A stretch of 33,689 bases of DNA from a virus. Lineage: Duplodnaviria; Caudoviricetes. Below the pieces are notes generated by a model, which worked only from the letters and a program-made list of their open reading frames with translations, searched no databases and was not told where the DNA came from. Position numbers and translations under genes: made by a program. Below are positions 1 through 33,689 of this stretch, one piece after another; the stretch's first letter is position 1; each line of letters starts with the position of its first letter. The stretch spans positions 1 to 33,689 of IMG/VR virus record IMGVR_UViG_3300035187_003302. One strand, written 5' to 3'.

Positions 1-127
1 CGGTTGGAAAGCGCGTCTACGGGCGGGCTTTCGCTGGCCGATGCCGAGCGGGCGTTGTCGCTCTTCTCCCGCGCCGCCGGGTGACTTGTCAAGCGTATGT
101 CAACCGCTTGACGGGCGCGGGGTGCGA
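1..127 (+). repeat. Terminal overlap copy 1 (identical to 32664-32790); 3' end of terL plus early promoter -35
   Basis: Bases 1-127 match 32664-32790 exactly; first mismatch at 128/32791. Confidence 0.95.
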
Positions 128-136
128 ACATATGGT
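86..136 (+). promoter_or_regulatory. Sigma70-type early promoter, allele A, with upstream TGTCA repeats
   Basis: TTGACG (108-113), 17-bp spacer, TATGGT (131-136); upstream TTGTCA-N6-TGTCAACCGC also present at the minus-strand promoter 23789-23816; followed by a hairpin and AACAGGAG SD. Confidence 0.8.
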
Positions 137-179
137 GTTCGTGTTCGGGGCGGTGCGCCCCGGCGAACAGGAGCCGACC

Positions 180-368
180 ATGACTAACACCAACCTCCGC
201 ACCCTCGCCATTGAAGCCGGCGGCGCCGGCGACTACGCCACCGTGGCCCTCTGTTTGCTGGCCATCGGCCGCCGCCGCGCCGACATGCCGGCCCACATCC
301 GCGCCGCCTGCCCCCCGCGCATCCGCGCGGCCGGCGCCCGTCGCGCGCTGAAAGCGAACCGCGCATGA
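180..368 (+). CDS. Small early hypothetical protein (cassette allele A, 62 aa)
   Basis: AACAGGAG SD before ATG 180; stop overlaps the yqaJ-like start (ATGA). Confidence 0.7.
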   Translation: MTNTNLRTLAIEAGGAGDYATVALCLLAIGRRRADMPAHIRAACPPRIRAAGARRALKANRA

Positions 369-1330
369 GCCTTCGCATCTACCAGACCCGCGCCGAATGG
401 GCCGCCGACCGCCGCAGCGGCGCCCCCGCCTTCGAGGTGGGCGCATCGGACGCGGCGGGGCTCCTTGGCCTCTCCCCGTGGGCGTCCCCGTGGGATTCGT
501 GGACCTCCGGCGCCGTCGGTGGGGGCAACCCGCCGGCAGAGGCCGACGCCCGGCGCGGGCACCTTGTCGAAGCGACCGCCGCCGCGCTTTGGGCGGCAGA
601 GGCCGGGGTGCATCTTTGGGGCTCGGACGGTCTTTGGGCGCCCGACGAAGACACCGTTCCCCGGCTTCCGCTTCTCCGGGCCCGCGCCGGTTGGCTCGCC
701 GTCACGCCCGATGCGCTCGGCATCGAGCCCGACGGCCGCCGCGTCGCCATCGAGACGAAGGCGCCACGCACCCTTGACGCTTGGCCCGACGAAGACGCGG
801 TGGTGCGCGACCCCGACGCAGAGGGCGTGCCCGTCCCGCCGCAGTACGCCGTGCAAGCTGCGTGCCAGATGTACGCGCTTCACGCCGTCGGCATCACCGT
901 GGCCGCCGTCGTTCTCGTGGCTTCGTCCGGGTGGGCGTGGCGTCGGGCGGTGCGCATCGAGGCGACACCCGCCGGCCTTCGCTGGGCTACGCGCGTTGTG
1001 GCCCACGTCGGCGCGGCCCGCCGCCGCATCCTCTTGGAGCGCCGGGAGCCCGACCCGGACGTAAGCGCGGCGTGCCTTGCCGAGCTTCGTTCCCGGCTTC
1101 CGCCCCGGCCGGCCACCATCGATGGCACCGACGAAGACGCCGCGTTGGTCGCGGCTTTCGCGGAAGCCAGGGCGCAAGAGTCCGAGGCCGCCGCCGCGAT
1201 TGCCGACCTCCGCCCCCGCATCCTCGCACGCTTGACGGGCGCGGGGGCCAATGCTATCCTAACCCCGTCGCACCGGTTGTCCGCCGACCGCCGGGGCGCA
1301 CTCAAAGTCCAGAACAGGAGCACCGAATGA
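365..1330 (+). CDS. YqaJ-like / lambda-exonuclease family recombination nuclease
   Basis: Motifs VGASDAAGLLGLSPWASP, RRGHLVE, AVTPDAL, IETKA, YAVQAACQM; adjacent to a RecT-like gene. Confidence 0.88.
   Translation: MSLRIYQTRAEWAADRRSGAPAFEVGASDAAGLLGLSPWASPWDSWTSGAVGGGNPPAEADARRGHLVEATAAALWAAEAGVHLWGSDGLWAPDEDTVPRLPLLRARAGWLAVTPDALGIEPDGRRVAIETKAPRTLDAWPDEDAVVRDPDAEGVPVPPQYAVQAACQMYALHAVGITVAAVVLVASSGWAWRRAVRIEATPAGLRWATRVVAHVGAARRRILLERREPDPDVSAACLAELRSRLPPRPATIDGTDEDAALVAAFAEARAQESEAAAAIADLRPRILARLTGAGANAILTPSHRLSADRRGALKVQNRSTE
1232..1260 (+). promoter_or_regulatory. Promoter for recT-like gene embedded in the yqaJ 3' end
   Basis: TTGACG-17-TATCCT with extended TG; shares 18 bp (1229-1246) with the early promoter (105-122). 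Confidence 0.7.
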
Positions 1331-2154
1331 GCGAAGTCCAGAACAGGCCACCGGCCGCCATCTTCCGCGCGCAGGTGGAGTCCGCCGCCCGCGCCATCCT
1401 CGCCCATCACCCGCGCGCCACCGAGGCCGCCGCCCGCGTCGGTCTGGCCTTCGCCGCCGCCGCCCGCGCCGCCCGCGACCCGTCGGCACTCTACGGCTGC
1501 ACCCCGGCTTCGGTTGCCGGCGCCATCGCCCAATGCGCCCTCGCCGACCTCTACCCCGGTGGCCACGCGCCCGCGGTCTACTTGGTCCCGCAGGCCGCGC
1601 GCCGCGACGAAGCGCCCGAACTCCAATGGCGCCTGACACACCGGGGCATGAGCATCATCGCCGCCCGCGCCGGATGGGGCGTGCACACGGTCCCCGTGTC
1701 CCGCGCCGACCTCCCCGGCCTCCGCGTCGATTTCGGCGAAGTCCTGTCGTGCCCGCCCTCGGACCCGACGGCCGCCGTCACGTCTTGGGATGACCTCGCT
1801 GGCGTGGTGGTGGTCATCCGCCCGCCCGCGCCCGCGCAGCGCGTCGCGCTTTGGGTGCCGGTCGGGACCATCGCCGCCCGCCGCCGCGCGTCCCGGATGG
1901 CCGGCGGTGGGCCGTGGCAAGCGTGGCCGGTGCAGATGGCGCAAGGCGCCGCGATTCGGGAGGTGGTGGCCCGCGGCGCGCTCCCGCTCGACCTCCCCGA
2001 CGACACGGAGACGGCGGAAGCCGAGGTGCAGCCCGCCGCCGTGGCCGCGCCGCCGGCACAGCGGATGCTGCCGGAGCTTCCCCCGGACTTCGCCCCCGAT
2101 GACCTCCCGGCCGGCGACCTCGCCCGCGTGGTGGACGAAGGGGAAGCCAAGTAA
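1327..2154 (+). CDS. recT: RecT-family single-strand annealing protein
   Basis: AACAGGAG SD, ATG 1327; ALYGCTPASVAGAIAQCALADL, VYLVP, LQWRLTHRGM, W..WPVQMA motifs; acidic C-terminal tail; paired with the exonuclease. Confidence 0.8.
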   Translation: MSEVQNRPPAAIFRAQVESAARAILAHHPRATEAAARVGLAFAAAARAARDPSALYGCTPASVAGAIAQCALADLYPGGHAPAVYLVPQAARRDEAPELQWRLTHRGMSIIAARAGWGVHTVPVSRADLPGLRVDFGEVLSCPPSDPTAAVTSWDDLAGVVVVIRPPAPAQRVALWVPVGTIAARRRASRMAGGGPWQAWPVQMAQGAAIREVVARGALPLDLPDDTETAEAEVQPAAVAAPPAQRMLPELPPDFAPDDLPAGDLARVVDEGEAK

Positions 2155-8076: not shown

Positions 8077-8079
8077 CCC

Positions 8080-9806: not shown

Positions 9807-9906
9807 GGGTAAGCCGTAGCACGGGGCCCCGCCCGCGTCAAAGCCGGACAAGCAACCCCGCGAAACACCTACGGGCGCCCGGCGCCGCGCCGTGGTAGGA
9901 TGCGCC

Positions 9907-12425: not shown

Positions 12426-13415
12426 ATGGCCCGCCTTGTCGGTCGCTCGCTTGCAATCGGCCTTTGCGCCGAATCCGCCTATGGGGACGGGGTTACCACG
12501 TCCGCCGCGCTCTACTGGACCACGCCTTCCGGCCTCTCCGCGCCCATCGTCCGCGCCGACGTGACGACCGTCCCTGACCTCGGTTTGGACGATTCGGGCC
12601 TCACCCGGCTTGATTTCGTCTCGAAGAAGTACGTGGACTTCGAGTTTAGCCAGCCGATGGACATGGACAACGACGGGATGCTTCTCCGCGCTGGCGTCGG
12701 CTCCGTCGCCACCACCGGCAGCGGCCCGTATACGCACACCTTCACCCTCGACATTGACCAGCCCGCGACCCTTGGCGGCGTTGTCGAGATGGCCGAAGAG
12801 GACGGCACCTTCTCCGAACTCGAATTCTCCGGCGGGCAGGTGGCGTCCATCCGCTGGGAAATCCAGGCGGGCGGCTACTGCGTCGAAACGATGCGCCTCT
12901 TCGGCAACGTCGAAACCGACTGGACCGGCACGCCGGTTCAGACGCCCGCTTCGTTCTCCCGGACGAAGGCCACCATCCCGTTCGCGAAGCAGGCGACCAC
13001 GGTTTCCATCCTCGGCAACACGTACAACGTCACGTCGGCCACCGTGGAATACAACCGGAATCTGAGCCCCGACCTCCAACACCTCGGAGAAGTCGGCATC
13101 GCACAGCAGTACCCGGGCCAGAACACCGGCGCCACCATCGAATTCGTGATGCCGATGCCGAGCTTTGCGCTTCTGACGGACCTTCTTGCGGAGACGCAGG
13201 GCACCGTCACTCTCACGCTGACGAACGGCGCGCGGTCGGTTTCGTGGGCCTTGGAGAATGCGCAGGTTATCGAGCATTCCGAGTCCATCAACGGCGTCGG
13301 CCTTGCCGAACTCCGCGTGCGCGTCGCGGCCCACGGCGGCGGCACCTACGGCGCGAAGTGCACCGTGATCAATGCGCTTTCGGCCGCCGTCCAGACGCAA
13401 GGCACCGCCGCGTGA
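12426..13415 (+). CDS. Major tail tube protein
   Basis: GGAG SD; ESAYG N-terminal motif, YTHTFTL, beta-rich acidic 329 aa; upstream of chaperone and tape measure. Confidence 0.8.
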   Translation: MARLVGRSLAIGLCAESAYGDGVTTSAALYWTTPSGLSAPIVRADVTTVPDLGLDDSGLTRLDFVSKKYVDFEFSQPMDMDNDGMLLRAGVGSVATTGSGPYTHTFTLDIDQPATLGGVVEMAEEDGTFSELEFSGGQVASIRWEIQAGGYCVETMRLFGNVETDWTGTPVQTPASFSRTKATIPFAKQATTVSILGNTYNVTSATVEYNRNLSPDLQHLGEVGIAQQYPGQNTGATIEFVMPMPSFALLTDLLAETQGTVTLTLTNGARSVSWALENAQVIEHSESINGVGLAELRVRVAAHGGGTYGAKCTVINALSAAVQTQGTAA

Positions 13416-14380
13416 CGTTGACGGACCCCCGGAGCGCCCGCCCGTGGCAAGTCCATCGGGCGGAATCCCTGACCCGGCTTGATTCGCGGGGTCTTTGGGA
13501 TGCGTGCTTCCGCTGCCTTCTCCCGTGGGAAGAGGCGGCGCACCGGGAGGCATTGGCGGCCGTGTTCCAGGGGAAGCCGGGTGACCTTGACGACGCCGTA
13601 ATCGAAGCCGTTGTCGGCGTTGTCGCGCGTGGCGAGGGCGGCGAACCGATGTTCCAGGCGGTGGACGCGGCGGCCGTCCCCGAACTGCAACAGCCCCGCG
13701 GCGGCCGTCCGCGCGCGCCGTGGGCGCTCTTGCTGCCCCGGCCGATTCGGGAGAAGGCCGCGCGTATGCTGGCCTTCGCCACGTTCCAAAAGGCCATCGC
13801 CGCGCGTCTCTGCGCCGCGTCGCCACCGCCCCCGGCACCGCCGACCGGGGAGGCCATCGCCACGGCCGCCGGGTGGGTTGGGGTGTGCGCCCTCGATTCG
13901 ATTGAGTTGGAAGGCGGCCTACCCCGCGCGCTTTCGACGGCCGCGTGGGATTACCTGCGCCGCGCGACGAAGGACGCCCCCGGCGAAGAGGCGCCCGCCC
14001 GGTGGGATATCCTCGCTGCGGATGCCGCCCGCGCGGTTCGGTGGCGCTGGGAAGCCGAGGGCGAAGAGCCGCCCGCGTGGCGCCCGGTCGCGGTGGCGGT
14101 GGACTGGCACGCGGAAGCCGGGGATGTATGGGTTGGCGAGATTGACTTGGCCGCGCTTGCCGAGGTGCTCCGCGTCGCGTACCGGGATGTTCTGGCCGCC
14201 GCCGATTTCCTTGGCCCGTGGATTTCGACGCCCTCTATTCTGGCCTTCGTCGGCGCGGACCTCCCGTTCGAGCACCGCCCGGATTATGCCGGCCTCACCC
14301 CGCCGGCGCGGGCGATGGTCGCCACGGCCTACCGCTTCGCCGCGGGCCACGCTGCCGCCGCCGCCCGGAGCCCGGTATGA
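13412..14380 (+). CDS. Putative tail assembly chaperone
   Basis: Between tail tube and tape measure; GTGA/ATGA overlaps on both sides. Confidence 0.5.
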   Translation: MTLTDPRSARPWQVHRAESLTRLDSRGLWDACFRCLLPWEEAAHREALAAVFQGKPGDLDDAVIEAVVGVVARGEGGEPMFQAVDAAAVPELQQPRGGRPRAPWALLLPRPIREKAARMLAFATFQKAIAARLCAASPPPPAPPTGEAIATAAGWVGVCALDSIELEGGLPRALSTAAWDYLRRATKDAPGEEAPARWDILAADAARAVRWRWEAEGEEPPAWRPVAVAVDWHAEAGDVWVGEIDLAALAEVLRVAYRDVLAAADFLGPWISTPSILAFVGADLPFEHRPDYAGLTPPARAMVATAYRFAAGHAAAAARSPV

Positions 14381-17996: not shown

Positions 17997-19624
17997 GTTG
18001 GAGCCCGGCCTTCGTCGCCGCCATCGAAGCGGGCGAGTCCATCCGCATCCGGCTTTCGTGGGCCGGCGCGACCGTCGCCACCTCGGACGGCTCCGGCGGG
18101 TGGGCCATGACGCGGATGCCGGTGGTGTCCGGGTGGGGATTGCAGCTTCGGACGTGGCAATGCTCGCTGCCGGTGATGTCCTTCGAGATTGCCGCCACGC
18201 CCGCCGAATACCAAGCCATCACGGGCCAAGTAGTGCTCGGCTCTGTCGTCTCCGTGTTCGCGGAATTCTCCGGCGGCACGGAACGCATTTGGCGCGGGCG
18301 CATCCTCGACTATTCGATGGGCGGCCTTGGCGACCAAACCAGGGTCCGAATCGACGTTTCGGATTTGGTCGCCTACACCCTCGACCGCATCCCCACCGGG
18401 AGCACCTACCCGGCGCCGCTCTTCGACGGCGTGGGCCGGAAGGCGCCGCAGCGGGTCCGACTTGGAATGGTCCCGTTTGACGACTTCACGCTAACGACGG
18501 TCAAGGCCGAATATACAACGCTCGCATCCGGCTTCACCCCTGGCGTTTCGACTGAGCTTGACGTGGGGAGCACCACGTCTTTCACACTCGGCTATGACTT
18601 CGCGAATTCGACGCCGATTGCGGCGGCGGTGCTGGCGAAGGCCAATGGGACGGAGGGCTTCGTCTATTTCGCGGCGAAGACCAGCACCAAACTGCAAACC
18701 CTGACCTATCCGCAGATGCCGGGCGGGACGCCGGCCAATCCGCCGTTCGCCACGTCCTACGCCATCGCTTCCGAGGTCTACCCCGTCGCCGTGGTTGCCG
18801 GGCATCCCTTCACGGTCATCCAGTCCGTCTGGACTTCGACCGGCGTATCCCTGGCGAACGGGCCCTATGACCGCCTCCCGGCCGCGTGGGCGCAAGGCAT
18901 CCCCTACGGGGAGATTGACGCCACCGATGCGAACCGATGGTCGGCGCTTGTCTACACCTCTTCGGTTGGCTCGGACCCGTGGACCGCGATTCAGACCCGC
19001 GTGGAATGGGAGTCCGGCGCGGACCTTTACACATGGGCCGCGCCCCTCGGAATCTGGCCCGTCACGCGCCAAGGCCAATTGACCTTGCGGGCGGCCATCG
19101 TTCCGGCTTCCGCTGGCGCGACCGTCATAGCCGGCGTTGTCAACGACTCCAACATCGTCGCGCTCGGGAGGCACAAAATCCGGGCCGCCGGTTGCGACGC
19201 CGAATATCGGGCGCTGCCTTTCTCGCACGCCACGTACCACGCCGTCGGCGCCGCCGGGAATCCGACGGAAGTGTACGTCTTAGGCCGGTCCAACCTCCGG
19301 CCGGTCACGCGCCCCGCGCAGTATTCGCCCGCGCCGCTGGACCTAAACCAGCACGTCATTGGCGAAACCGCGCCCATCGCGCAAGACCTTGACCGCCGCG
19401 TGGCGCCGTGGGCGTGCCGCGTGGCCTTCGAGGTCGAAGGCGTGGAGCTTTGGGGCGCCGCCGTCGGTTGGGTGCCGGGCGATATCGTGCGCGTCACGTC
19501 GGCCGCCATCCCCATCGGGGGCGGCGCGACCGCGCAGGATACCCCGGCGGTCTGGATTCCCGAAGAGGTCGATTGGGGAAGCCGGACGGCGCGGGGTCGG
19601 TTGGTCTTCCTACCCGCGCAATGA
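17993..19624 (+). CDS. Putative tail tip / baseplate hub protein
   Basis: IWRGRI, RIDVSD, GWVPGDIVRV motifs; 543 aa; last plus-strand tail gene. Confidence 0.6.
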   Translation: MSWSPAFVAAIEAGESIRIRLSWAGATVATSDGSGGWAMTRMPVVSGWGLQLRTWQCSLPVMSFEIAATPAEYQAITGQVVLGSVVSVFAEFSGGTERIWRGRILDYSMGGLGDQTRVRIDVSDLVAYTLDRIPTGSTYPAPLFDGVGRKAPQRVRLGMVPFDDFTLTTVKAEYTTLASGFTPGVSTELDVGSTTSFTLGYDFANSTPIAAAVLAKANGTEGFVYFAAKTSTKLQTLTYPQMPGGTPANPPFATSYAIASEVYPVAVVAGHPFTVIQSVWTSTGVSLANGPYDRLPAAWAQGIPYGEIDATDANRWSALVYTSSVGSDPWTAIQTRVEWESGADLYTWAAPLGIWPVTRQGQLTLRAAIVPASAGATVIAGVVNDSNIVALGRHKIRAAGCDAEYRALPFSHATYHAVGAAGNPTEVYVLGRSNLRPVTRPAQYSPAPLDLNQHVIGETAPIAQDLDRRVAPWACRVAFEVEGVELWGAAVGWVPGDIVRVTSAAIPIGGGATAQDTPAVWIPEEVDWGSRTARGRLVFLPAQ

Positions 19625-19680
19625 CCGCTATCCCGCGCAATGACCGGCTATCCCGCGCAATCGCAATGACCGGCTATCCC
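19613..19680. repeat. About three tandem copies of a 19-20 bp unit at a convergent gene junction
   Basis: CCCGCGCAATGACC(G)GCTAT at 19613-19631 and 19632-19651, then an interrupted copy at 19652-19677. Confidence 0.9.
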
Positions 19681-20027
19681 GGCTTGATTCCGGTGAACGC
19701 TTCGAGTTCCGCGACGGAAACCAGACAGCGGACCACGGCTTCCGCGTATCCGGCCAGACCCGGGAGGTCGGCGGCGGTGCAGTAGGCTACGAGGTCCACG
19801 GCCTCTTGCAGCGCGTCCACGGCATGATTTCGCCCGTTCGAGCGTTGGAGCGGCACGCCGTACCGCGCGATTCCCTGCGCCCGACGTTCCACGTACAACG
19901 CGCGCAACCGCGGGTCCGAGGTCCGCGCGATGATTTCGGCCCAAACGTCGCCATCGGCGGGCACGGGGTCGGGCTCGGGCGCAAGCCGGGCGGCAAGGGC
20001 CGCAAGCTGTTCCCGGTCGGTGCTCAT
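19674..20027 (-). CDS. MazG-like all-alpha nucleotide pyrophosphohydrolase
   Basis: ERRAQGIARYGVPL...NGR...DALQEAVDLVAY, an ExxD helix typical of phage MazG-like proteins. Confidence 0.55.
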   Translation of the reverse strand: MSTDREQLAALAARLAPEPDPVPADGDVWAEIIARTSDPRLRALYVERRAQGIARYGVPLQRSNGRNHAVDALQEAVDLVAYCTAADLPGLAGYAEAVVRCLVSVAELEAFTGIKPG

Positions 20028-20191: not shown

Positions 20192-20538
20192 GGGGCGGCC
20201 TCGATTTCGGCCAGCGCGGCGCGGATGGCGGCGAACACCTCCGCGCGGGCGGTGGCGCGGACGTGCGCGACGAAGGCGGCCACGGCGTCGGGAAGGGCCG
20301 CCGGGGCGGAAGCCGGGGTCGGGAAGAGCGGCGCGGGCTCCGCTTCGGTGGTGGCCACGTCGCGCAGCGGGGCGCCGGCCAGACGGAGGGCGTTCGCCAC
20401 GGCGCGCGCCGAACGGGGCGGGCGCCCGCGGGCGGTCATTTCGGCGGCGACTTTGGCCCACGGAAGCGACGTGTCCGCGGCGATTTCGAGGCCGACGCGG
20501 TAATCGGCGGAATCCCAATACTTGCGAGCGTAGGTCAT
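20188..20538 (-). CDS. Myb/SANT-like HTH protein, paralogue 1
   Basis: WDSADYRVGLEIAADTSLPWAKVAAEMTARG..R; AACAGGAG SD. Confidence 0.55.
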   Translation of the reverse strand: MTYARKYWDSADYRVGLEIAADTSLPWAKVAAEMTARGRPPRSARAVANALRLAGAPLRDVATTEAEPAPLFPTPASAPAALPDAVAAFVAHVRATARAEVFAAIRAALAEIEAAP

Positions 20539-21682: not shown

Positions 21683-22012
21683 TTATTCGCCGCGGATGGG
21701 CCGAACATGCACTCGGATTCCGCCCGCGATGGCCGACACCGTGACGCGCGACGGTGCAGAGATGTCGAAGGACAACGTGCCGATGGGCTCCGCGCGCTTG
21801 GACGGCGCATCCTCCGGCGCCCGCTTACGGCGCACATCAGCACGAACCGGCGCCCCGGCGCGCACAAGCGTTTTGCGGACGGCTTGCGGCCCGCGCAGGG
21901 CGTAGCCCTCGGAGGCCATGACCGCGCCGACCTTGCGCCACGAAAGGGCGGTGTCGGCGGCGATTTCGAGCCCACGGCGAAGCTCTGCGGCGGTCCAGGC
22001 GGCCCACGTCAC
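21683..22012 (-). CDS. Myb/SANT-like HTH protein, paralogue 2
   Basis: WTAAELRRGLEIAADTALSWRKVGAVMASEG..R; clear similarity to 20188-20538. Confidence 0.6.
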   Translation of the reverse strand: MTWAAWTAAELRRGLEIAADTALSWRKVGAVMASEGYALRGPQAVRKTLVRAGAPVRADVRRKRAPEDAPSKRAEPIGTLSFDISAPSRVTVSAIAGGIRVHVRPIRGE

Positions 22013-22975: not shown

Positions 22976-23134
22976 TTAGTCCGGGAGGAAGGCGCCAAGA
23001 CCCCACGCGCCGACGATGGCGAGCGGAATCCAGGCAACGTGGTACGGGGCGGGCGCGATGGTGGCGCCGATGGCGGCGGCGAAGGCCAGGATGCCGAGGG
23101 CGGCGCGGGCGGGCGGGTAGGGAAGCGGCGTCAT
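22976..23134 (-). CDS. Small two-TM membrane protein (52 aa)
   Basis: Two hydrophobic segments; ATG overlaps upstream stop. Confidence 0.6.
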   Translation of the reverse strand: MTPLPYPPARAALGILAFAAAIGATIAPAPYHVAWIPLAIVGAWGLGAFLPD

Positions 23135-23358
23135 GCGTCGCGCCCTTCGCAGTCGCCGATGCCGGGGGCGTCGGTGTCGTGATCCTCGCAGGCCGACACG
23201 ATGGAGACGCCGAGGGCGGCGGCGGCGGTGTAAACGTCGGCGATGCTGGCGCCGGCGGCGCAAGCCACCTTGGCCGCGTCGTAGTCGGTGAGCTTGCCGC
23301 CGCGGGAGTACGTGGAGACGTAGCAGGAAAGAAGGTAGGTCGAACGGGTGAGTTCCAT
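23131..23358 (-). CDS. Small early hypothetical protein (75 aa)
   Basis: AACAGGAGCAAGCCATG start box, identical to that at 33092-33108. Confidence 0.7.
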   Translation of the reverse strand: MELTRSTYLLSCYVSTYSRGGKLTDYDAAKVACAAGASIADVYTAAAALGVSIVSACEDHDTDAPGIGDCEGRDA

Positions 23359-23444
23359 GGCTTGCTCCTGTTTGGTGGGCGTCGCGCCCCGTGATAGACC
23401 GGCGACCGGGCCATCACGGGGCGCCCCGTCCGGGGCGCGTGGCG

Positions 23445-23717
23445 TCAGGCGTTGAGGGTGGCGGCCATCGCCAACGCAGCGCGGTAGGCGCGGGCATAAG
23501 CCGTGCGGCCGGTGGTTTCCGCGTAGCGCCCGGCGTGGCAGCGTTCCCAGGTGGCGACGATGCGAGCAACGCCGCGGGCGCGGTCGCCGATGAACGCCGG
23601 GCGGCCGTCGAAGTCAGGCGAAAGTTCGACCACGGCCACGCGGCGGTAGCGGCCCCAGCAGGAGTTCGGCATCTTGGCGGCGGCGGTCATAACAACGTAG
23701 CGGTGAGAGGCGGTCAT
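23445..23717 (-). CDS. Small early hypothetical protein (90 aa)
   Basis: First gene after the promoter at 23794-23766; GGAG SD; ATG 23717. Confidence 0.7.
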   Translation of the reverse strand: MTASHRYVVMTAAAKMPNSCWGRYRRVAVVELSPDFDGRPAFIGDRARGVARIVATWERCHAGRYAETTGRTAYARAYRAALAMAATLNA

Positions 23718-23731
23718 GGGAGACTCCGGGG

Positions 23732-23816
23732 GAATGTCGCGGGCCCACCGCCCGCCGACATTCACACAGTATGGCGGCCCCCGTCCAGCGTCAAGCGGTT
23801 GACAATCTCCTGACAA
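23732..23816 (-). promoter_or_regulatory. Second early promoter with TGTCA repeats and 5' leader hairpin
   Basis: TTGTCA-N6-TGTCAACCGC-TTGACG-17-TACTGT, then GAATGTC-G-GCGGGC...GCCCGC-GACATTC stem. Confidence 0.8.
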
Positions 23817-25604
23817 CTAACCAGCCACGTCTTCGAGCACGGCCCGCGGGAAAACGTAGCATCGAGCCTGCAATCCCGCGATGCGCACGTTCCGCGTGGC
23901 GCGCCCTTGCGCGTCAGGCAGAAGCCAACCGCGCGCAAGCCATTCGCCGATGACGGCGCCACGGTCGGCGCTCGCCTCCGTTAGCCAGCGGTCCAGCACA
24001 TCCGGGCGCACGGCCACCTGCGCCCACGCCTCCGTGGCATCCCACGCGCCGGCCCACCCGTCCGGCGGCGGGTCCGCGGCGGCCGAATGCCAGAAGCGAT
24101 GGCGGGCGGCAACAGCGCGGGTCCAGACCGCCGCCAAGGTGGCGCGCGGCTTGTCGGCGTCCTGGCCGCTGCGCCGGGCGCCTTCGAGCGCGACAAGGAC
24201 CGCCGCGTATTCGCCGCCATCGGCAACGGGCACGGGGAAGCCGGCGTCCGTCATGGCCTCCGCAGCCAGCCGAAGAGACGCCACAGCCGCGCCCAAGCGC
24301 CCGGCGACGGCTCCCGCGTCCGCGGCAAGCTGCCCCGCGTAGTGGTCCCGGAGGTCGGCCCACCGCGCGCGCACGGCGTCCGCCCCGCGGGCGAGCGCCC
24401 ACCGGATGACCGCCGGCCCGGCGTGGCCGTAGTGGGGCGCGCGACACTCCGGCCCGATGATGCGCGCGATGGCGGCGGCGCGGGCGGCGCCGTCGGCCCC
24501 CAAGGGCTCGCCCCGGACTACGATGGTACGGGCGCGGGCGCCGTCGTCTTTCGGCGCGTAGCTGGTGATTTCGGCCTCCCCCGTCGAAAGCATCCACGAA
24601 CACCACGATGCCGAGCGTTGGACGCCGGTCACGGTCCCCCGGCCTTTGCCGATGCCGCTGGCGTGGACGTAGAGGGTGCTCCCGATGGTTGCTTCCCGCT
24701 CCCGTTCGGGGACTTTCTTGCTATCGTCCAGCATGACGGGAAGATGTTTGAGGGCGGCGGCGGCGCGCTCTTTGTATGTCGCGGTGCCGGTCCAGGGCAT
24801 GATGTAGCCCTGTTCACCGGGGCGCCCCCAAACCGACGCAGCGACGTTTAGCGCCGTCGTCTTTCCGCGCGAAGTGTAGCCGCAGATGTCGAGAATCCAT
24901 CCCACCTGCGAATAGACGGAGACGAGAGGGGACGCGGCGGAAGCCAGGATGGCAAGCCAAACGATGGGGAGGTCGGCCAGCACCGGCCCAAGCTGCCGCC
25001 ACCCGTCCGGGGTGCCGGCGCTCCCAACGGCGTGGACGGGCGCGGGGAGGTCGGGGGCGTAAAGCTCGACCGCTTCGCCCCCGGCTTCCCCGATGCATTC
25101 GCTCCCGAAAATGAAGCCCGCGAAATCAGGGCCGGTCCACCCGCAGCGGCGCGCGACCCGGCCAAGAGGCACTTCGTCAGACTCGGCATAGGCGCCGATG
25201 TATTCGACAACCCCGCGCGCGTTGACTGACGAGACGGGCAATCCGTCATCGGCCAGCGCCACAAGCTTGCGGCTGTCAAGGAACGCCGACCGGGGGCGCG
25301 TGATGCTGCGCCACCCGCGGCCATCGTGCCAGCACACTTCGAGCATCGCGGCGCCATCGTCAATGTCCACGATGCGCCGTTGGACGTGGACCGCGCGCGG
25401 GCAGACCATGAGGAAACGGGAGCCGTTCTCGTCTCTCGTCTCTTTCCAGACGCCCGATTCATCCACCGCCCACCCGCCGGGCGGCGGCGCGACGTGGCCG
25501 GGCGGGGCGAAGGTCGGCGGCGCCTCGCCCGCGGGCACAAGCCGGGGCCGGGTGACGGGCGCGGGCTCGTCTTCCACGAAGAAATCATCGATGCTGCTGC
25601 TCAT
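23817..25604 (-). CDS. DUF927-type replicative helicase / ATPase
   Basis: N-terminal W.VDESGVW...V.RRIVDID DUF927-like region; Walker A GYTSRGKTT, Walker B VMLDD, LSTGE, GARAR, HYGHAG; AACAGGAG SD. Confidence 0.85.
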   Translation of the reverse strand: MSSSIDDFFVEDEPAPVTRPRLVPAGEAPPTFAPPGHVAPPPGGWAVDESGVWKETRDENGSRFLMVCPRAVHVQRRIVDIDDGAAMLEVCWHDGRGWRSITRPRSAFLDSRKLVALADDGLPVSSVNARGVVEYIGAYAESDEVPLGRVARRCGWTGPDFAGFIFGSECIGEAGGEAVELYAPDLPAPVHAVGSAGTPDGWRQLGPVLADLPIVWLAILASAASPLVSVYSQVGWILDICGYTSRGKTTALNVAASVWGRPGEQGYIMPWTGTATYKERAAAALKHLPVMLDDSKKVPEREREATIGSTLYVHASGIGKGRGTVTGVQRSASWCSWMLSTGEAEITSYAPKDDGARARTIVVRGEPLGADGAARAAAIARIIGPECRAPHYGHAGPAVIRWALARGADAVRARWADLRDHYAGQLAADAGAVAGRLGAAVASLRLAAEAMTDAGFPVPVADGGEYAAVLVALEGARRSGQDADKPRATLAAVWTRAVAARHRFWHSAAADPPPDGWAGAWDATEAWAQVAVRPDVLDRWLTEASADRGAVIGEWLARGWLLPDAQGRATRNVRIAGLQARCYVFPRAVLEDVAG

Positions 25605-26838: not shown

Positions 26839-26867
26839 AGGGTAGCGCGGCGCCCGGCGCCCGTCAA
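26839..26867 (-). promoter_or_regulatory. Promoter for primase-helicase
   Basis: TTGACG-17-TACCCT; the -35 contains the methylase stop; shares 17 bp with the promoter at 27797-27825. Confidence 0.75.
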
Positions 26868-27790
26868 CCGAGCAGCGCCGTCACGAACTGCGCCGCGATT
26901 TGCGGGACGATGGCATTACCGTAGCCCCGTAATCGTCCCACGCGGGCGGGTATCCCATCAGCCAGCGGGAATGTTCCGGGTCCAACCGGCCGCCATTTCC
27001 CATCCCGGCATCCGAGCCAATCAGAATCCGCCCATCCGCTGTGAGTCGCGCGGGGCCTTTCGCCTCCCACGCCACCCGGCCGAGCAGCCCGTTCGGCGGC
27101 GCCGTCCCGTCCGCTGCGCCGTCCTTCCAGTCGCGCGTCGTGGGCGTCGGCCATCCCGCCGCCTGAGCTGCCGCCGCAAGCGTAAGCCCCGCCCCGTTCC
27201 CGTTGTGGTGCCGCTCTCGCATCCGGTCCCGGCGCGCTTGGTTCGCCTCCCACGGCTGGCCGTCGTTCATCGCCCCGGCGTCCGGCGTCGGCCACGGCGC
27301 CCCAGTAAAGGCGCTGTCGAAGATGCGGCGCACCGACCCCCGCAGCGCACAAATCGGCGGCCCCGACGGCATATCCCAGACCTTCCAAGTCAAGGCGTAC
27401 AGCGCAGAGCCAGTCAAGCCCGGCGCGGCCCGCAACCTGCTCTCCAAGGACGATTGCAGGGCGGCACTCCGCGACGAGGCGGCGCATTTCGGGCCAAAGG
27501 TGGCGCTCGTCGGCGGTGCCCCGGCCTTTCCCTGCAACGGAAAATGGCTGGCAGGGGCAGGAACCGGTCCAGACGGGCGCATCGTCGGGGATGCCGGCAA
27601 GTCGGAGGGCGAGGGGCCAGCCCCCAATTCCCGCGAAGAAGTGAGCTTGGCGGTATCCCACAAGGTCATCTGGACGGACATCGGCGATGCTCCTTTCGTC
27701 CACGTCGCCGGCCGGAAGGTGGCCGGCGGCAATCAGGGCGCGCAGCCAGGCGGCGGCGAAGGGGTCGTGTTCATTGTAGTAAGCGGGCAT
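26864..27790 (-). CDS. DNA cytosine-C5 methyltransferase, alpha chain
   Basis: FFAGIGG (I), GSCPCQPFSVAG (IV), EQV (VI), HLRQRLYW (VIII), GYGNAIVPQ (X); motif IX absent. Confidence 0.92.
   Translation of the reverse strand: MPAYYNEHDPFAAAWLRALIAAGHLPAGDVDERSIADVRPDDLVGYRQAHFFAGIGGWPLALRLAGIPDDAPVWTGSCPCQPFSVAGKGRGTADERHLWPEMRRLVAECRPAIVLGEQVAGRAGLDWLCAVRLDLEGLGYAVGAADLCAAGVGAPHLRQRLYWGAVADAGRRGDERRPAVGGEPSAPGPDARAAPQRERGGAYACGGSSGGGMADAHDARLEGRRSGRDGAAERAARPGGVGGERPRATHSGWADSDWLGCRDGKWRPVGPGTFPLADGIPARVGRLRGYGNAIVPQIAAQFVTALLG
26881..27681 (-). CDS. Overlapping-frame beta chain of the C5 methyltransferase (266 aa)
   Basis: AAAGGAG SD 8 nt before ATG 27681; two WPTP units and RLDPEHSRWLMGYPPAW (motif IX). 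Confidence 0.75.
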   Translation of the reverse strand: MSVQMTLWDTAKLTSSRELGAGPSPSDLPASPTMRPSGPVPAPASHFPLQGKAGAPPTSATFGPKCAASSRSAALQSSLESRLRAAPGLTGSALYALTWKVWDMPSGPPICALRGSVRRIFDSAFTGAPWPTPDAGAMNDGQPWEANQARRDRMRERHHNGNGAGLTLAAAAQAAGWPTPTTRDWKDGAADGTAPPNGLLGRVAWEAKGPARLTADGRILIGSDAGMGNGGRLDPEHSRWLMGYPPAWDDYGATVMPSSRKSRRSS

Positions 27791-27829: not shown

Positions 27830-28280
27830 TGTAGCAGGGCGCTACTACGTCTCGACGGGGCGTGAGATAGCGAAAGCCAAGGAACGACCGGCACGGCGCC
27901 GCGCAGCGGCACTCCCCTTCTCTCTCTCTTTCTCTATACCTTTTATGCTACTGCTACACTTGCTACGCGCATGCTACCAGGGGGACGGTAGCACGATACA
28001 CGTAGTCAAAGCGTCATTTTCGGCGCTGCTACACCTGCTACGCCAAAAACACATACCCCTTCGCGCGCGCGACCCCCGGGCCCCTCCTCACCCCTCCTTC
28101 TCCCCGTTACATATGTACCCTTTTCCGGTAGCGCGTAGCAGAGCGTATCTGCAACCAGCACCCTCCCGGATTACGCCGACCGTCCGCCGCGTTTCGGCCG
28201 GCCCAAGTGATACCGCGGGAGTGTAGCAACAAGGTAATACCCCTGTCGCCGCTACCTGTTTCTGGTAGCAGAGGCGCCCC
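27830..28280. other. Putative replication origin / divergent control region
   Basis: Non-coding, lower GC, pyrimidine tract 27912-27944, many TGCTAC/GTAGCA hexamers in both orientations, 18-bp near-repeat at 27951-27968 and 28026-28043. Confidence 0.6.
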
Positions 28281-28282
28281 GC

Positions 28283-28311
28283 TTGACGCGCCCGGGGCAC
28301 GGTGCTACGGT
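28283..28311 (+). promoter_or_regulatory. Promoter for HTH/terminase operon (leaderless)
   Basis: TTGACG-17-TACGGT with extended TG; ATG 28318 begins 7 nt after the -10. Confidence 0.75.
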
Positions 28312-28317
28312 AAGGCC

Positions 28318-28569
28318 ATGACCACGCTTCACGACCTTCACGCCCGCGGCCTCTCCGACGCCGAAATCGGCGCCGCCCTTGGCCTCTCCCTGCCGCGCGC
28401 CCGCGCCGCCCGTGTGCGCGCCGGGCTGCCAGCGAACCCCGCGCCACCGCCGCGCGCCCGTCTCCGCGTCTCGCTTGCGCCGGACGTGGCGGCCGCCATC
28501 GTGGACCGCGCCGCCATCGAGCGCCGGCCCGTCGCCGCCGTGGCGCGCGCCCTTCTGGTGGGCGCGTGA
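28318..28569 (+). CDS. HTH plus ribbon-helix-helix-like DNA-binding protein, paralogue 1
   Basis: GLSDAEIGAALGLS HTH; ANPAPP linker; LRVSL...AAIVDRA. Confidence 0.65.
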   Translation: MTTLHDLHARGLSDAEIGAALGLSLPRARAARVRAGLPANPAPPPRARLRVSLAPDVAAAIVDRAAIERRPVAAVARALLVGA

Positions 28570-28733
28570 GCCCCGGCGATATCGTCTGGCTGAGCGGTCC
28601 AGGCGGCGTGATGCGCGTCAACTTCCGCGGGCTCCACCCGGACGATTCCGGCCTCGCCATCGTTCTCTCGTGCGAGACGTGGATGCAGTTCACGGTCCAC
28701 GTTTCTGCGCTTTCGCGGGAAAAGCTGGAATGA
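28566..28733 (+). CDS. Small beta-rich hypothetical protein (55 aa)
   Basis: GTG 28566 and TGA 28733 both overlap neighbours by 4 bp; MSPGDIVWL start. Confidence 0.6.
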   Translation: MSPGDIVWLSGPGGVMRVNFRGLHPDDSGLAIVLSCETWMQFTVHVSALSREKLE

Positions 28734-29854: not shown

Positions 29855-30933
29855 CCTGTCCCCTCTTTGTCGAGTTGTGCGCCGGCACCGCCGCGCTTAG
29901 CCTCCGGCTTCACCGCCGCCACGCCCGGCCGCCCGTCTCCCGCATGGGGGCGAAGACCGGGTACGCGGATGCCATCCTCCGGGTGCTCGGGCTTCGGCCA
30001 GGCCAAGGCGCGGCGCACTACCTCTGGTGTGAGCCTGACCCCGGGGTGCGGCTCTTGTTGGAGGCCTACCGTGACCCTGGCTTGGCTCAGGAGGCGGCCG
30101 CCATCATCCGCGGATGGGTTGACGAAGAGCCCCGGGCGCTGTGGGAGAGGCTACGGGCAGAGGGGCCGCCGCGGGGCGTGGAGGCCGGGGAGGTGGCGCG
30201 GTGGGCGCGGCTCATCACCGCGAACCGACTTATCCCCGGGCGGTGGGCCGACGATGGGCGCTGGGTCAACGCGGCACGCGATGGTGGCGAGCACACTATC
30301 GGCGGCGTGTCTTTCGGCGGGGATGAGTTCTGCACCCCGGCCGTGGACCTTGCGGCCAAGTTCGAGGCCAGCGTCGGCGACATGCCGGCGATCGTGGAGG
30401 CCGACGCCCGGCGCGTGGACCCGCGGGAGGTGGCGCGGTGGCTCAATATCGAAGCGTGGGTCAATAATGGTCGCTACATGGGTCCAGACAGGCCGGCGGC
30501 GCGGCGCGCGGTTGACCCGGGTTGGGTTGCGTCGCTTACCGGTGTCGGGCTTGCTTGTCGCACGGATGACCTCCCCACCCTCCCCGCCACCATCACCCCC
30601 GACGCCCGCGGCATCGAGCCCGGCCCCGACCTCCCGCCCGGAACGGTCGCCTACATGGACCCGCCTTACGTGGGGACGACTGGCTACGGTCACGACCTCC
30701 CGCGCTCGGAGGTGGTCGCCCTTGCCCGGCGGTGGGCGGACGCGGGGGCAACGGTCGCCATCTCCGAGGCTGAGCCCATCGCGGACCTCACCGCGGAGGG
30801 CTGGCACGCCGTCCGCGTGGACGGGGAGCGGGCAGGCAGCAAGCGCACCTTCTCGAAGCAGCAGGCGGAATGGGTCACGATGAACCGCCCGCCCGCATGG
30901 ACACCACCGGAACAGCGGGGGCTATTCGCATGA
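29851..30933 (+). CDS. Dam-like (D12-class) N6-adenine DNA methyltransferase
   Basis: FVELCAGTAA (I), RMGAK (X-like), YMDPPY (IV), VAISE. Confidence 0.8.
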   Translation: MTCPLFVELCAGTAALSLRLHRRHARPPVSRMGAKTGYADAILRVLGLRPGQGAAHYLWCEPDPGVRLLLEAYRDPGLAQEAAAIIRGWVDEEPRALWERLRAEGPPRGVEAGEVARWARLITANRLIPGRWADDGRWVNAARDGGEHTIGGVSFGGDEFCTPAVDLAAKFEASVGDMPAIVEADARRVDPREVARWLNIEAWVNNGRYMGPDRPAARRAVDPGWVASLTGVGLACRTDDLPTLPATITPDARGIEPGPDLPPGTVAYMDPPYVGTTGYGHDLPRSEVVALARRWADAGATVAISEAEPIADLTAEGWHAVRVDGERAGSKRTFSKQQAEWVTMNRPPAWTPPEQRGLFA

Positions 30934-32747
30934 CGCCCGCCGAAATCCTCCGGCTTCCGCTGGCCGACCTTGTGACGGCCGCCGCCGCGTCGGGCCCCGC
31001 CGGGCTGGCGTGGCTTCGGTTCCGCTGCGACCGCGACTTGGCCGCATACATGGCGCTTTGCTGGCCGGGGATTGCCGCCGCGCCCTTCGCCCCGTCGCAC
31101 CGTGCCATCTTGGCTTGGTTCGATTCTCTGCCGCCGTTCGACCTCCGCGCCGCGCAAGCCGGGGCCGATGCCGAGGCCGACCCCATCGCGCGGTCGGCGT
31201 GGGAGGCGCCGCGCGGGACCGGCAAAACCTCGGTTGCGATTGCTGCGCTTGACCGGGCGGTGCGTTCGGGCCGTGAACCTTACGTCGTCATCATCGGCCC
31301 GGAGTCCGCGCACGCATCCGCGCTTTCCGTCTCGCTCCAAGCGATGCTGAGCCCCGGCCACCCCGCCGCGTCGCCGATGCTGGCCGCGCTCTATGGCGAC
31401 GTGGGATGGACCGGCAACATGGGCGATGGCGCGGTCAAGCGTGGGGCCGTCCTTGGCTTCCCCGCGGGCGTCTCCTATGTCTCCGTCCGTTCGATTGGCG
31501 GCACCATCCGGGGCCTTCTTCGTGGGACGCACCGGCCAACGCTGGTTCTCCTTGACGACCTCGAAAAGCCAGACGACGTGGGCAGCATGGCCGCGCGCGA
31601 TGCGATGCACGAAAAGCTGAACTCGGACGTTCTAAACTTGGGGCCGCAGGGCGGCGGCTTGGCGGTCTGCCTCATGGCGACCCGGCTTCACCCCGACGCG
31701 GTGTCGGCGCGTCTCCAACGTGACCCGGCTTGGGATGGCGCGTCCTTCCGCGGGATTGTGCGTTGGCCCGTCGGCGTCGAATCGGGCGAAATCCAGGAGG
31801 GCAGCCGATGGGCGGAATGGCGGGCGCTCCTGACGGACCCGGCTTCACCCGCCCGGGAGCGCGAACGCGCCGCCCTCGACTTCTACCGGCAGCACCGCGA
31901 CGAAATGGACGCCGGGGCCGAAGTGCTCGACCCTCACCGGCTTCCGCTGTACCGGGCGATGCTCCGGCTTGTTTCGATTGGGCTCCCGAGCTTTCTGAAA
32001 GACGTACAGAACGCGCCGATTGCTTCGGGCGGCGGCGCATTCCGCCCCGATTCGTTCCGGTGGTGTACGCTGGACGGGCGGGATGTCGTCATTGGCTACG
32101 GAGACACCGCCCGGCGCATCCCCCTTCCGGCTTTCTCCCGCGCGGTGGTCCACCTCGACCCGACCACAAGCCGCAAGAAGGGCAGCACCGCCCGCGACTT
32201 CGCCGGCTTCGCCGTGGTGGCGATGCGAGACGACCGCGCGACGGGTGAACGGCTGTACGTGGTGCTCGAATGGTCGGCCGTCCGCGAAGAGCCCGAAGAC
32301 CAAGCCGAACGGGCGTGGGCCGCGTGGGCGCGGTGGCGGGCCGCCGGCATCCCCGCCGTGGAGGTCATCTACGAAAGCAACGGCGGCGGGGGCGCCTGTC
32401 TCCAAGGCGAATACCACGCCGATATGCGCCGCAAACGCAAAGCCGCCGGCCTCCCGTCCACGATGGAGCCCGTCGCCATCCACGAAACCCGGGCTAAGGA
32501 CGCCTGCATTTCCGGCGTGGTTCCGCTGCTGAATAACGGCGTGGCCGTGCTTTCGACCGCCATCCGCTCGCATGAGGGCGGCCGGGAAGCTCTCCGGCAG
32601 ACGGAGGCATGGCCCGGCGGCGCGCATGACGACGGCCCCGATGCGCTGGCGAAGGCGCTGCTTCGGTTGGAAAGCGCGTCTACGGGCGGGCTTTCGCTGG
32701 CCGATGCCGAGCGGGCGTTGTCGCTCTTCTCCCGCGCCGCCGGGTGA
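30930..32747 (+). CDS. terL: Terminase large subunit
   Basis: Walker A APRGTGKT, IRG, Walker B VLLDDLE, ATRLH.D, QN.P, nuclease HLDP and HDDGPDAL. Confidence 0.92.
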   Translation: MTPAEILRLPLADLVTAAAASGPAGLAWLRFRCDRDLAAYMALCWPGIAAAPFAPSHRAILAWFDSLPPFDLRAAQAGADAEADPIARSAWEAPRGTGKTSVAIAALDRAVRSGREPYVVIIGPESAHASALSVSLQAMLSPGHPAASPMLAALYGDVGWTGNMGDGAVKRGAVLGFPAGVSYVSVRSIGGTIRGLLRGTHRPTLVLLDDLEKPDDVGSMAARDAMHEKLNSDVLNLGPQGGGLAVCLMATRLHPDAVSARLQRDPAWDGASFRGIVRWPVGVESGEIQEGSRWAEWRALLTDPASPARERERAALDFYRQHRDEMDAGAEVLDPHRLPLYRAMLRLVSIGLPSFLKDVQNAPIASGGGAFRPDSFRWCTLDGRDVVIGYGDTARRIPLPAFSRAVVHLDPTTSRKKGSTARDFAGFAVVAMRDDRATGERLYVVLEWSAVREEPEDQAERAWAAWARWRAAGIPAVEVIYESNGGGGACLQGEYHADMRRKRKAAGLPSTMEPVAIHETRAKDACISGVVPLLNNGVAVLSTAIRSHEGGREALRQTEAWPGGAHDDGPDALAKALLRLESASTGGLSLADAERALSLFSRAAG

Positions 32748-32790
32748 CTTGTCAAGCGTATGTCAACCGCTTGACGGGCGCGGGGTGCGA
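32664..32790 (+). repeat. Terminal overlap copy 2 (identical to 1-127)
   Basis: Exact match with offset 32663. Confidence 0.95.
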
Positions 32791-32799
32791 GCATATGAT
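32749..32799 (+). promoter_or_regulatory. Early promoter, allele B
   Basis: TTGACG (32771-32776)-17-TATGAT (32794-32799). Confidence 0.8.
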
Positions 32800-32848
32800 G
32801 TTTGTGTCCGGGGGCGATGGAGCCGCCCGGCGAACAGGAGAAGCCACC

Positions 32849-33076
32849 ATGACCGCCACCCGCACCCTCGCCATCGAGCGCCTTCGCGTTGCCGCCGCCG
32901 CCCTCGCCGCCGCCGCCGCTTGGAAAGCCGCCGCCGACGCCGCCGCCGCCGCCGCCAAGGCCACCGCCGGGGGCGCCGCCGACGCCGCCGCCGACGCCGC
33001 CGCCTGGGCCGCCGCCGACGAGGCCAAGGCCGCCGCAGAGGTTGCCGCCGACGCCGCCGCCCGCGCCTCCGTCTGA
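32849..33076 (+). CDS. Ala-rich low-complexity early protein (cassette allele B, gene 1)
   Basis: AACAGGAG SD; begins MTATRTLAIE (allele A has RTLAIE); GCC-repeat rich. Confidence 0.65.
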   Translation: MTATRTLAIERLRVAAAALAAAAAWKAAADAAAAAAKATAGGAADAAADAAAWAAADEAKAAAEVAADAAARASV

Positions 33077-33105
33077 CCGCCCCCACCACCCAACAGGAGC
33101 AAGCC

Positions 33106-33510
33106 ATGACCGCCACCATCACCGACGCCTACTATCTCCGCTGCGACGCTTCCAACGTGCCCGATAACGTCAGGTTTGACGTTCCCCGCCGCTTCCAGGG
33201 GCATATTGTCGAGTATGCGTTCGCTGACGCGACCCCGGGCCGCGGGGAGGGCGACGTGGGGTCAGTCTGGAAGATGGCCACCGACCGCTCGGACCAGTCC
33301 GTTTGGTTCGCACAGCGCCACATCGAGCTTCGGACGGCGCGCGCGGTTCGCACCTTCGGCGATGGCTCGAACTGCCGCCGCTTCCGCGTGGCCCTCGGGA
33401 CGGGCACCGTCCAAGCGTGGGACGTGGTGGCCGACCATTGGACCACCTGCCACAGCCTGACGGCCCGTCAGATTGCCGCCCTGCGGGCCGCCGCTCGGGA
33501 TGCCGCATGA
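33106..33510 (+). CDS. Early hypothetical protein (cassette allele B, gene 2, 134 aa)
   Basis: AACAGGAGCAAGCCATG start box; stop overlaps the yqaJ ATG. Confidence 0.7.
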   Translation: MTATITDAYYLRCDASNVPDNVRFDVPRRFQGHIVEYAFADATPGRGEGDVGSVWKMATDRSDQSVWFAQRHIELRTARAVRTFGDGSNCRRFRVALGTGTVQAWDVVADHWTTCHSLTARQIAALRAAARDAA

Positions 33511-33689
33511 GCCTTCGCATCTACCAGACCCGCGCCGAATGGATGGCCGACCGCCGCAGCGGCGCCCCCGCCTTCGAGGTGGGCGCATCGGACGCGGCGG
33601 GCTTGGTTGGCCTCTCCCCGTGGGCGTCCCCGTGGGATTCGTGGACCTCCGGCGCCGTCGGTGGGGGCAACCCGCCGGCAGAGGCCGAC
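33507..33689 (+). CDS. Second allele of the YqaJ-like exonuclease 5' end (truncated by window)
   Basis: Matches 365-547 except clustered changes at 33543-33545 (A to M) and 33602-33606 (LL to LV). Confidence 0.9.
   Translation, partial: MSLRIYQTRAEWMADRRSGAPAFEVGASDAAGLVGLSPWASPWDSWTSGAVGGGNPPAEAD

Follow-up and report, generated by a model that had tools for sequence, protein, structure and literature searches.

In this study, the interval between the terminase large subunit gene (terL) and the yqaJ exonuclease gene of a tailed phage was found to be a real accessory-gene hotspot, which is occupied, counting the window itself, by four gene contents in five arrangements. The window is the whole stretch of 33,689 nucleotides analysed here (record IMGVR_UViG_3300035187_003302). 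It carries two of these fillings, allele A near its first base and allele B near its last, and is best understood as a loop of 32,663 bp to which 899 nt of a minority genome are attached as a branch; the loop with allele A is likely one 32.7-kb phage genome, and B a dead-end branch of a co-existing minority genome. The whole account, which combines loop and B branch, a variable slot, homologous recombination during co-infection and an early action on the host, is in our judgement quite probable.

The window represents a tailed-phage genome of 70% GC that encodes YqaJ, RecT, portal, protease, endolysin, a RuvC-like resolvase, a primase-helicase, two methylase-like proteins and TerL. A weak helix-turn-helix gene was also noted at 28207-28569 (Pfam E 0.07). 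Cultured phages match the window TerL at only about 26-27%, and two scans of genome contigs for the host found nothing. The features discussed below are listed in Table 1.

Table 1. Features of the two variable slots, their flanks and the methylase site in the window
Feature	Position	Strand	Evidence or comparison
Left anchor, copy 1: last terL codons, stop, -35 box TTGACG (108-113)	1..127	+	exact duplicate of 32664-32790
Allele A leader: -10 box TATGGT (131-136), predicted hairpin, SD AACAGGAG (166-173)	128..179	+	
Gene A, 62 aa, predicted four-helix, unnamed family	180..368	+	96% nt to G006 gene
yqaJ/RecE-like exonuclease, right flank, ATGA-coupled to slot gene	365..1330	+	PF09588, 25.6 bits (cut-off 22)
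RecT single-strand annealing protein	1327..2154	+	PF03837, 31.5 bits (cut-off 24)
Fixed right-hand neighbour of slot 2: 75-aa gene preceded by AACAGGAG	23131..23358	-	
Slot-2 hairpin linker, after slot-2 gene	23374..23444	-	z -2.69 for 23356-23448
Slot-2 cargo, 90 aa	23445..23717	-	comparison with G002-G005
Slot-2 stop-promoter-hairpin-SD module	23715..23824	-	homologous to slot-1 module, 63-66% nt; common 15-mer at -35 box
C5 DNA methylase (26864-27790), bordered on each side by an identical 16-nt promoter -10 segment	26839..27812	-	
terL, terminase large subunit, left flank	30870..32747	+	phrog_38, E 5e-49
Left anchor, copy 2, assembly-graph branch point	32664..32790	+	127 nt exact; contig depths
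Allele B leader: -10 box TATGAT (32794-32799), predicted hairpin, SD AACAGGAG (32833-32840)	32791..32848	+	
Gene B1, 75 aa, Ala-rich	32849..33076	+	94% nt to gene of unrelated G008
B1-B2 stop-to-start linker with second AACAGGAG and 14-mer CCATGACCGCCACC	33072..33117	+	
Gene B2, 134 aa, fusion of two unnamed modules of about 60 aa, each also found alone	33106..33510	+	
Right anchor on B branch: 5' end of second yqaJ haplotype, cut off by contig end	33504..33689	+	7 differences

Self-comparison of the window showed that bases 1-127 equal 32664-32790 exactly, with mismatches beginning at 128/32791, and that 362-547 agrees with 33504-33689 at 179 of 186 positions, the seven mismatches lying at 401-403, 460, 461, 463 and 464 and only the last 83 nt matching exactly. 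Both overlaps had been reported in a preliminary description (the second as near-identity of 365-547 to 33507-33689), together with a single 62-aa gene in A and an Ala-rich plus a 134-aa gene in a longer B, and all of this was borne out; between the anchors as drawn there, A comprises 237 nt and B 716 nt, a difference of 479 nt. A value of 127 is commonly used as the assembly k. The B arm ends 83 nt past its last mismatch and not 127, and therefore represents a dead-end branch, not a closed bubble; the earlier proposal that an assembler had joined co-existing alleles held, but the bubble did not.

A search of sequencing runs identified 20 from lakes or freshwater that contain part of 32300-33689, 11 of them with at least half of its words, and six were examined as contigs, allele depths being flat contig figures. 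In run X1 the shared node (depth 33.6) divides into A (23.8) and B (7.95 and 6.83), and 23.8 plus 7.95 adds up to about the node; since terL (about 30) and yqaJ (33) are level with the node, the anchors are single-copy, and the split of node depth points to different molecules for the two alleles. Pieces of A and B were likewise both present in runs X2 (A 34.5, B 4.4-7.1) and X3 (A 8.7, B 3), the ratio varying between samples with A roughly 3- to 8-fold deeper in these three; either X1 or X2 may be the source sample. A single contig of run X12 leads from 226 nt before the first base of the window through A into yqaJ with zero differences, and another from X6 (depth 16.4) links the end of B2 to the B-type yqaJ haplotype, while X11 diverges from the A sequence at 150 and agrees with the B type at 401-403. 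Within B1 the Ala-rich part was masked as a repeat, so that no single contig spans the whole of B.

That alleles A and B sit on separate molecules is accordingly something of which we are highly confident. The contig as assembled reads as one molecule with both, which might reflect an imperfect terminal redundancy or a tandem duplication, and tandem stacking is known in the family, as one metagenome locus (L013, described below) holds three cargo genes and a duplicated yqaJ start; this reading is nevertheless extremely improbable, for the anchors do not have double depth, the A and B depths are unequal and sum to the node in X1, the overlap is exactly 127 nt long, and all eight related records that reach the slot carry one filling, none having A and B together. 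B could instead be an assembly artefact, or come from an unrelated phage with only the flanks in common: B1 and B2 do occur in an unrelated phage, G008, and the B branch has its own yqaJ haplotype, which probably marks another strain with a collapsed backbone. The copies in G008 sit in other contexts, however, whereas G003, which has direct terminal repeats and 91-97% identity along the genome, carries B1 and B2 between terL and yqaJ, G005 carries B1 there, and in both X1 and X2 the B contig and the terL node have 30 nt in common. Artefact or foreign origin is thus largely refuted at the species level and hardly credible: contigs of three runs support each of the alleles, and B-type fillings recur in genomes 91-97% identical, neither of the two findings that the preliminary description had named as fatal to it being obtained.

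Relatives were collected by searches with yqaJ, terL and the promoter, which yielded five viral records (G001-G005, mostly 91-97% identical to the window along their length) and three metagenome loci (L013-L015). An A-like gene behind a B-type leader was found in G001 and L014, and an A-type leader joined directly to B2 alone, within a shared 9-mer (AACAGGAGC), in G002 and G004. The same leader-A/B2 junction is present in the database protein P0006, and assemblers do not join sequences over as little as 9 nt. G003 contains B1 and B2, and G005 ends inside B1, behind a hybrid leader. In L013 and L015, which are apparently identical, the order is gene X (108 aa), a look-alike of the terL end (46 nt, 85%), B2, a copy of the yqaJ start, gene Y (85 aa) and yqaJ, such that the first 30 nt of yqaJ are duplicated around Y. 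Two slot scars were also noted in L013, a diverged terL 3' end (3430-3497) and the first ten yqaJ codons followed by a stop (3925-3967). Each leader type occurs with both A-type and B2-type cargo. The description of this slot as hypervariable is thus upheld by five arrangements between terL and yqaJ; it shows the most fillings in a small sample, yet is one of several variable sites.

Several features were said to be retained by both alleles. Among these, the promoter, the SD (AACAGGAG, at 166, 32833 and 33092) and the ATGA overlap of A and of B2 with the yqaJ start are indeed kept, as are the RTLAIE codons in A and B1 (16 of 18 nt identical). The -10 boxes differ (TATGGT in A, TATGAT in B), with the -35 box lying inside the identical anchor, and the hairpins to which both leaders are predicted to fold are not significant against shuffles (z -1.16 and -1.03); no two-sided compensatory changes were detected in them across six leaders. 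The B promoter scores 10 of 12, with one found against 0.0 in shuffled sequences; promoters of a similar sigma-70-like type stand before the capsid and methylase genes of the window as well. In slot 1 the hairpin follows the -10 box and lacks a U-tract, and no terminator-like site was found in 32400-33689. Cargo GC is 73%, against 70% for the genome.

A second slot, on the opposite strand, exists in three states: the 90-aa gene of the window, an unrelated 74-aa gene between identical flanks in G005, and an empty site in G002-G004, with the exchange breaking exactly at the start and stop codons. Over 66 nt, the hairpin linker of this slot agrees at 97% with one from the unrelated G008. An upstream motif in which GTCAA/TTGAC inverted boxes stand back to back is common to the two slot promoters (86-113, 32749-32776 and 23789-23822) and represents a candidate operator. 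At the methylase site, G003 and G005 have a single 16-nt copy and lack the gene, which makes the methylase with its 16-nt repeats the clearest indication here of short-homology insertion or excision; further indels break at ATGA or GTGA overlaps.

Some additional variation was noted along the genome. A site between two promoter-like elements is empty in the window (9856-9874) and holds a reverse-strand Ala-rich ORF in G003 (1228-1505) and G004 (3806-4083), a different 120-nt insert in G005 (21772-21891) and about 950 nt in G001 (12641-13594). More gene-sized indels or replacements among G001-G005 lie at 29856-30927, 28571-28731, 20202-20217, 19622-19782 and 7355-8167, and three of those inspected break at start/stop overlaps or shared gene ends. 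Short tandem TTGCGCGGGATAGCCGGTCA-like units follow the 19674-20045 gene at 19625-19690 (minus strand) and are fewer or absent in G001, G003 and G005.

Profile scans of viral contigs were employed to seek A and B2 elsewhere, and A was found in G006 and G007, B2 in G008 and G009. With ten window core proteins tried by tblastn, G006 and G008 gave no match and G007 and G009 matched the protease and lysin only. Gene A is 96% identical in nucleotides to its G006 counterpart (165 nt) and 77% to those of the conspecific G001 and L014; gene B1 is 94% identical to G008 over 233 columns; gene X is 95% identical to G006; and B2 is 81% identical to G008, its 5' half reaching 85% there against 63-69% in four conspecifics, whose 3' halves are 95-98% identical. 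These identities of A, B1, X and the B2 5' half to core-unrelated phages indicate horizontal transfer between unrelated phages, which presumably took place in a shared host. Homology with the donor phages begins at about the start codon and stops near the stop codon. G007 shares the B-type leader and the B1-B2 linker, the latter at 89% over 53 nt to the linker behind its A-like gene. The 14-mer CCATGACCGCCACC was counted 11 times across the window together with 20 other stretches compared, always where a gene of the slot or of a small-gene array begins, and is confined to cargo starts in four different phages, including G007 and G008.

The two core-unrelated phages contain arrays of small genes, in G006 (L038 15824-17408, L037 486-1091) with ArdA among them and in G008 at L041 2036-3120 and L042 13224-15148. 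The genes of these arrays are separated by repeated GC-rich hairpins, C-rich runs and GGAG, and the hairpins could be processing or stability signals. The order in G006 is ArdA (PF07275, 33.5 bits, cut-off 27), X and A. The same phage encodes Erf, and a stretch of it is 77% identical in nucleotides to 7363-8272 of the window.

Linkage was analysed in three sets of five genomes, with 439, 239 and 484 informative sites. Four-gamete incompatibility was 12-13% for sites less than 30 bp apart, climbed to 57-67% at 100-300 bp and levelled off beyond, a decay of linkage that could partly stem from mixed-strain consensus contigs, and the compatibility of adjacent sites was far above that in permutations (0 of 1000 reached the observed value). 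Taken at face value, these data support, without proving, that the species recombines genome-wide in short tracts, and whole fillings could therefore be swapped through terL and yqaJ without special sites. Swapping at short conserved boundaries, as first proposed, was right in that short shared sequence is present there, at SD, start and stop codons, and not in that such boundaries are needed, as the signal spans the whole genome. We consider it probable that whole fillings are exchanged within the species by crossovers anywhere in terL and yqaJ, and that single genes would be gained or dropped by crossovers in the SD/start repeat, as between an A-type leader and B2 within the shared 9-mer. 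With moderate confidence, new cargo would enter from unrelated phages of the same host through start or stop homologies of 10-30 nt or through homologous gene ends. Because the anchors are duplicated around Y and the methylase, short homology is suggested to matter for single-gene gain and loss and for import.

Whether the phage's own YqaJ/RecT pair may drive these exchanges is a question on which our judgement is evenly balanced. The preliminary description had drawn attention to the slot lying directly upstream of this pair; both genes were confirmed by Pfam, but a special link was not, as cargo and the second slot lie elsewhere as well. RecT and an exonuclease occur in the window, and Erf in G006. 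According to the accessible part of PMC3945230, recombination of DNA with 78% identity is about 100-fold more efficient with RecT and Erf than with RecA.

Cargo could also be brought in by non-homologous joining, with selection keeping those junctions that preserve promoter, SD and ATGA, so that the short shared sequences would simply be expression signals. Such selection for viable chimeras would also leave breakpoints at start and stop codons, where donor homology begins and ends here; MT starts are frequent in core genes too, other indels of the family likewise break at ATGA/GTGA overlaps, and in the portion of PMC3945230 at hand traces of homology are reported at only about one third of mosaics. 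The duplicated anchors (16 nt at the methylase, 30 nt at Y) are, on the contrary, what single crossovers in short homology leave, and the restriction of CCATGACCGCCACC to cargo starts in four phages also counts against it; we regard non-homologous joining as an improbable explanation, though a serious rival, and the two routes can both operate. Far less probable still is a dedicated system, either integron- or shufflon-like cassettes moved by a site-specific recombinase or a protein-level tag, RTLAIE. The idea of a boundary sequence exists for lambdoid phages, and internal proteins of T4 carry a capsid-targeting signal. Repeated hairpin-plus-SD units do separate small genes in G006 and G008, and RTLAIE is common to A and B1. 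However, no integrase or invertase was detected among the 73 ORFs scanned (43 with PHROGs and 30 more with Pfam, some ORFs shadowing identified genes being left out), and the junctions fall at differing motifs instead of one site; RTLAIE is missing from B2, X, Y and the slot-2 genes, and within the A family E alone is invariant, L and the first A being nearly so. Homologous exchange through the flanks and short shared sequences is our preferred reading.

The cargo was then considered for its possible role. A, B1 and B2 gave no family match in PHROGs, Pfam, NCBIfam or PADLOC, the X, Y and slot-2 genes gave only sub-threshold matches, for Y, and no homology to known anti-defence proteins was detected for A, B1, B2, X or Y. 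The A family comprises 20 clusters, and its model (pLDDT 89.9) has four short helices, for which no structural match was obtained (Foldseek E>1; best VIA Z 4.2). The B2 model is poor (pLDDT 41.7) and fold searches with it were uninformative; an AP2/Arm-type DNA-binding fold, which its three strands and helix resemble, was not supported. The two halves of B2 (33106-33324 and 33325-33510) are widespread unnamed modules, of the RFDVP...QGQIVE and VWDSVAGHYTTCH types, without a Pfam family. Among 150 of 239 matches to B2, 111 cover the N-half only, 28 the C-half only (4 of these being long repeat proteins) and 11 both, and the C-half alone forms a family of about 60 aa with at least 120 clusters.

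A WD40 assignment for the C-half, suggested by weak motif matches (51 members, also PDB), was rejected as a short DGTVRVWD-type coincidence in which no stretch is significant alone. One C-half relative (P0295), among 39 B2 relatives, is fused to a helix-turn-helix domain, and a homologue search with the C-half found no cultured phage with it. In a strict scan, 9 of 30 C-half family loci stand behind a sigma-70-like promoter, compared with 5.8% of random windows. Under a relaxed pattern, which was chosen after the strict-scan data had been seen and for which two starts were shifted by eye, the genes lie 42-64 nt behind such a promoter at 11 of 25 loci against 10 of 155 other SD-led starts, the 25 being left from 33 after three were dropped (two without a start, one near a contig end) and five near-duplicates removed. 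This placement fits a first-in-operon gene read by the host polymerase.

The cargo is rather likely to encode host-interaction proteins, which would be made early from a host sigma-70-type promoter. The preliminary proposals of a first-expressed slot and of a role in host takeover or anti-defence were not established. Promoters of a similar kind stand before late genes too, such as the capsid gene, and the sole named anti-defence neighbour is ArdA, two genes upstream of A in G006; 102 neighbours of the C-half family were scanned and no named anti-defence protein was found beyond one methylase. Anti-defence would be the single likeliest specific role, a tentative assignment that we hold with less than even confidence.

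The slot is ordinary in kind and plainly illustrates a type of gene shuffling already known in phages: their hotspots have been catalogued by the thousand, and T4-type phages are known to shuffle genes under the guidance of linkers. What makes it useful is that it offers a clean example from the wild, in which two alleles co-exist at ratios that vary from one lake run to another, three cargo genes can be traced to named donors among unrelated phages and the scars at the junctions can still be read; it also serves to recall that two genomes can be contained in a contig whose ends differ. Moreover, its unnamed small-protein families sit where anti-defence genes often occur and provide a short candidate list. 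Further attention is best given to the gene pool that spans these phages and to the unnamed families. A bolder possibility, which we think doubtful, is that unrelated lake phages of 25-35 kb with one host hold a common library of small early genes and modules, standardised by the promoter-hairpin-SD leader, the 'MTAT' start linker and stop-to-SD hairpin linkers, into which RecT/Erf annealing would plug genes. If true, this library (A, B1, the B2 halves, X, Y and the slot-2 genes) would be a candidate list of new anti-defence families travelling with ArdA.

Among known systems, the slot was compared with the promoter-early stem-loop (PeSL) cassettes of T4-type phages, insofar as the consulted parts of PMC2839356 and PMC4122927 describe them. 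An upstream stop, a sigma-70-like promoter, a predicted stem-loop, an SD and a start are arranged in an element of about 100 nt before ORFans in both, and neighbouring genes are gained, lost or replaced; PeSL crossovers are reported there between the SD and the -10 box, and the leader hybrids observed here match. In contrast to about 50 PeSL per genome in those parts, two modules exist here, about 9 kb apart on opposite strands; they do not flank the cargo as direct repeats, SD/start motifs alone flanking B1, they are GC-rich, and the hairpin lies past the -10 box without a U-tract, not between or over the promoter boxes as a terminator. The phage is also a 33-kb one with YqaJ/RecT and is not T4-like. 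As both the terminator placement and the many flanking copies fail, the modules are not classed as PeSL.

In the part of PMC2839356 that defines morons, likeness is limited to extra genes where relatives have adjacent or differently filled genes. Unlike such morons, the slot-1 cargo has no promoter or terminator of its own, given the -35 box in the shared anchor, the lack of a terminator and the ATGA coupling; it relies on the promoter already in place, is coupled to yqaJ and agrees with the genome in GC content. The methylase cassette resembles a moron more than the slot-1 cargo does. With the mosaicism driven by Rad52-like recombinases (Red-beta, RecT, Erf), as presented in the sections of PMC3945230 consulted, the present case shares a phage RecT with exonuclease, a partner phage with Erf and recent high-identity mosaics in unrelated genomes; those sections concern temperate coliphages and long diverged flanks, whereas here no integrase was found and the import homologies are 10-30 nt. 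The iLund4u survey (10.1101/2024.10.15.618418) gives, in the part available, 12.4K phage hotspots, with cargo proteins numbering about three in each island and 89.8% of groups lacking annotation; the present slot, in which fixed core genes enclose a variable set of one to three small genes without annotation, does not, on that part, differ in kind. The slot therefore works like the PeSL/linker shuffling of T4-type phages but is not PeSL, and what this case adds is the particular families and their traced sharing with unrelated phages.
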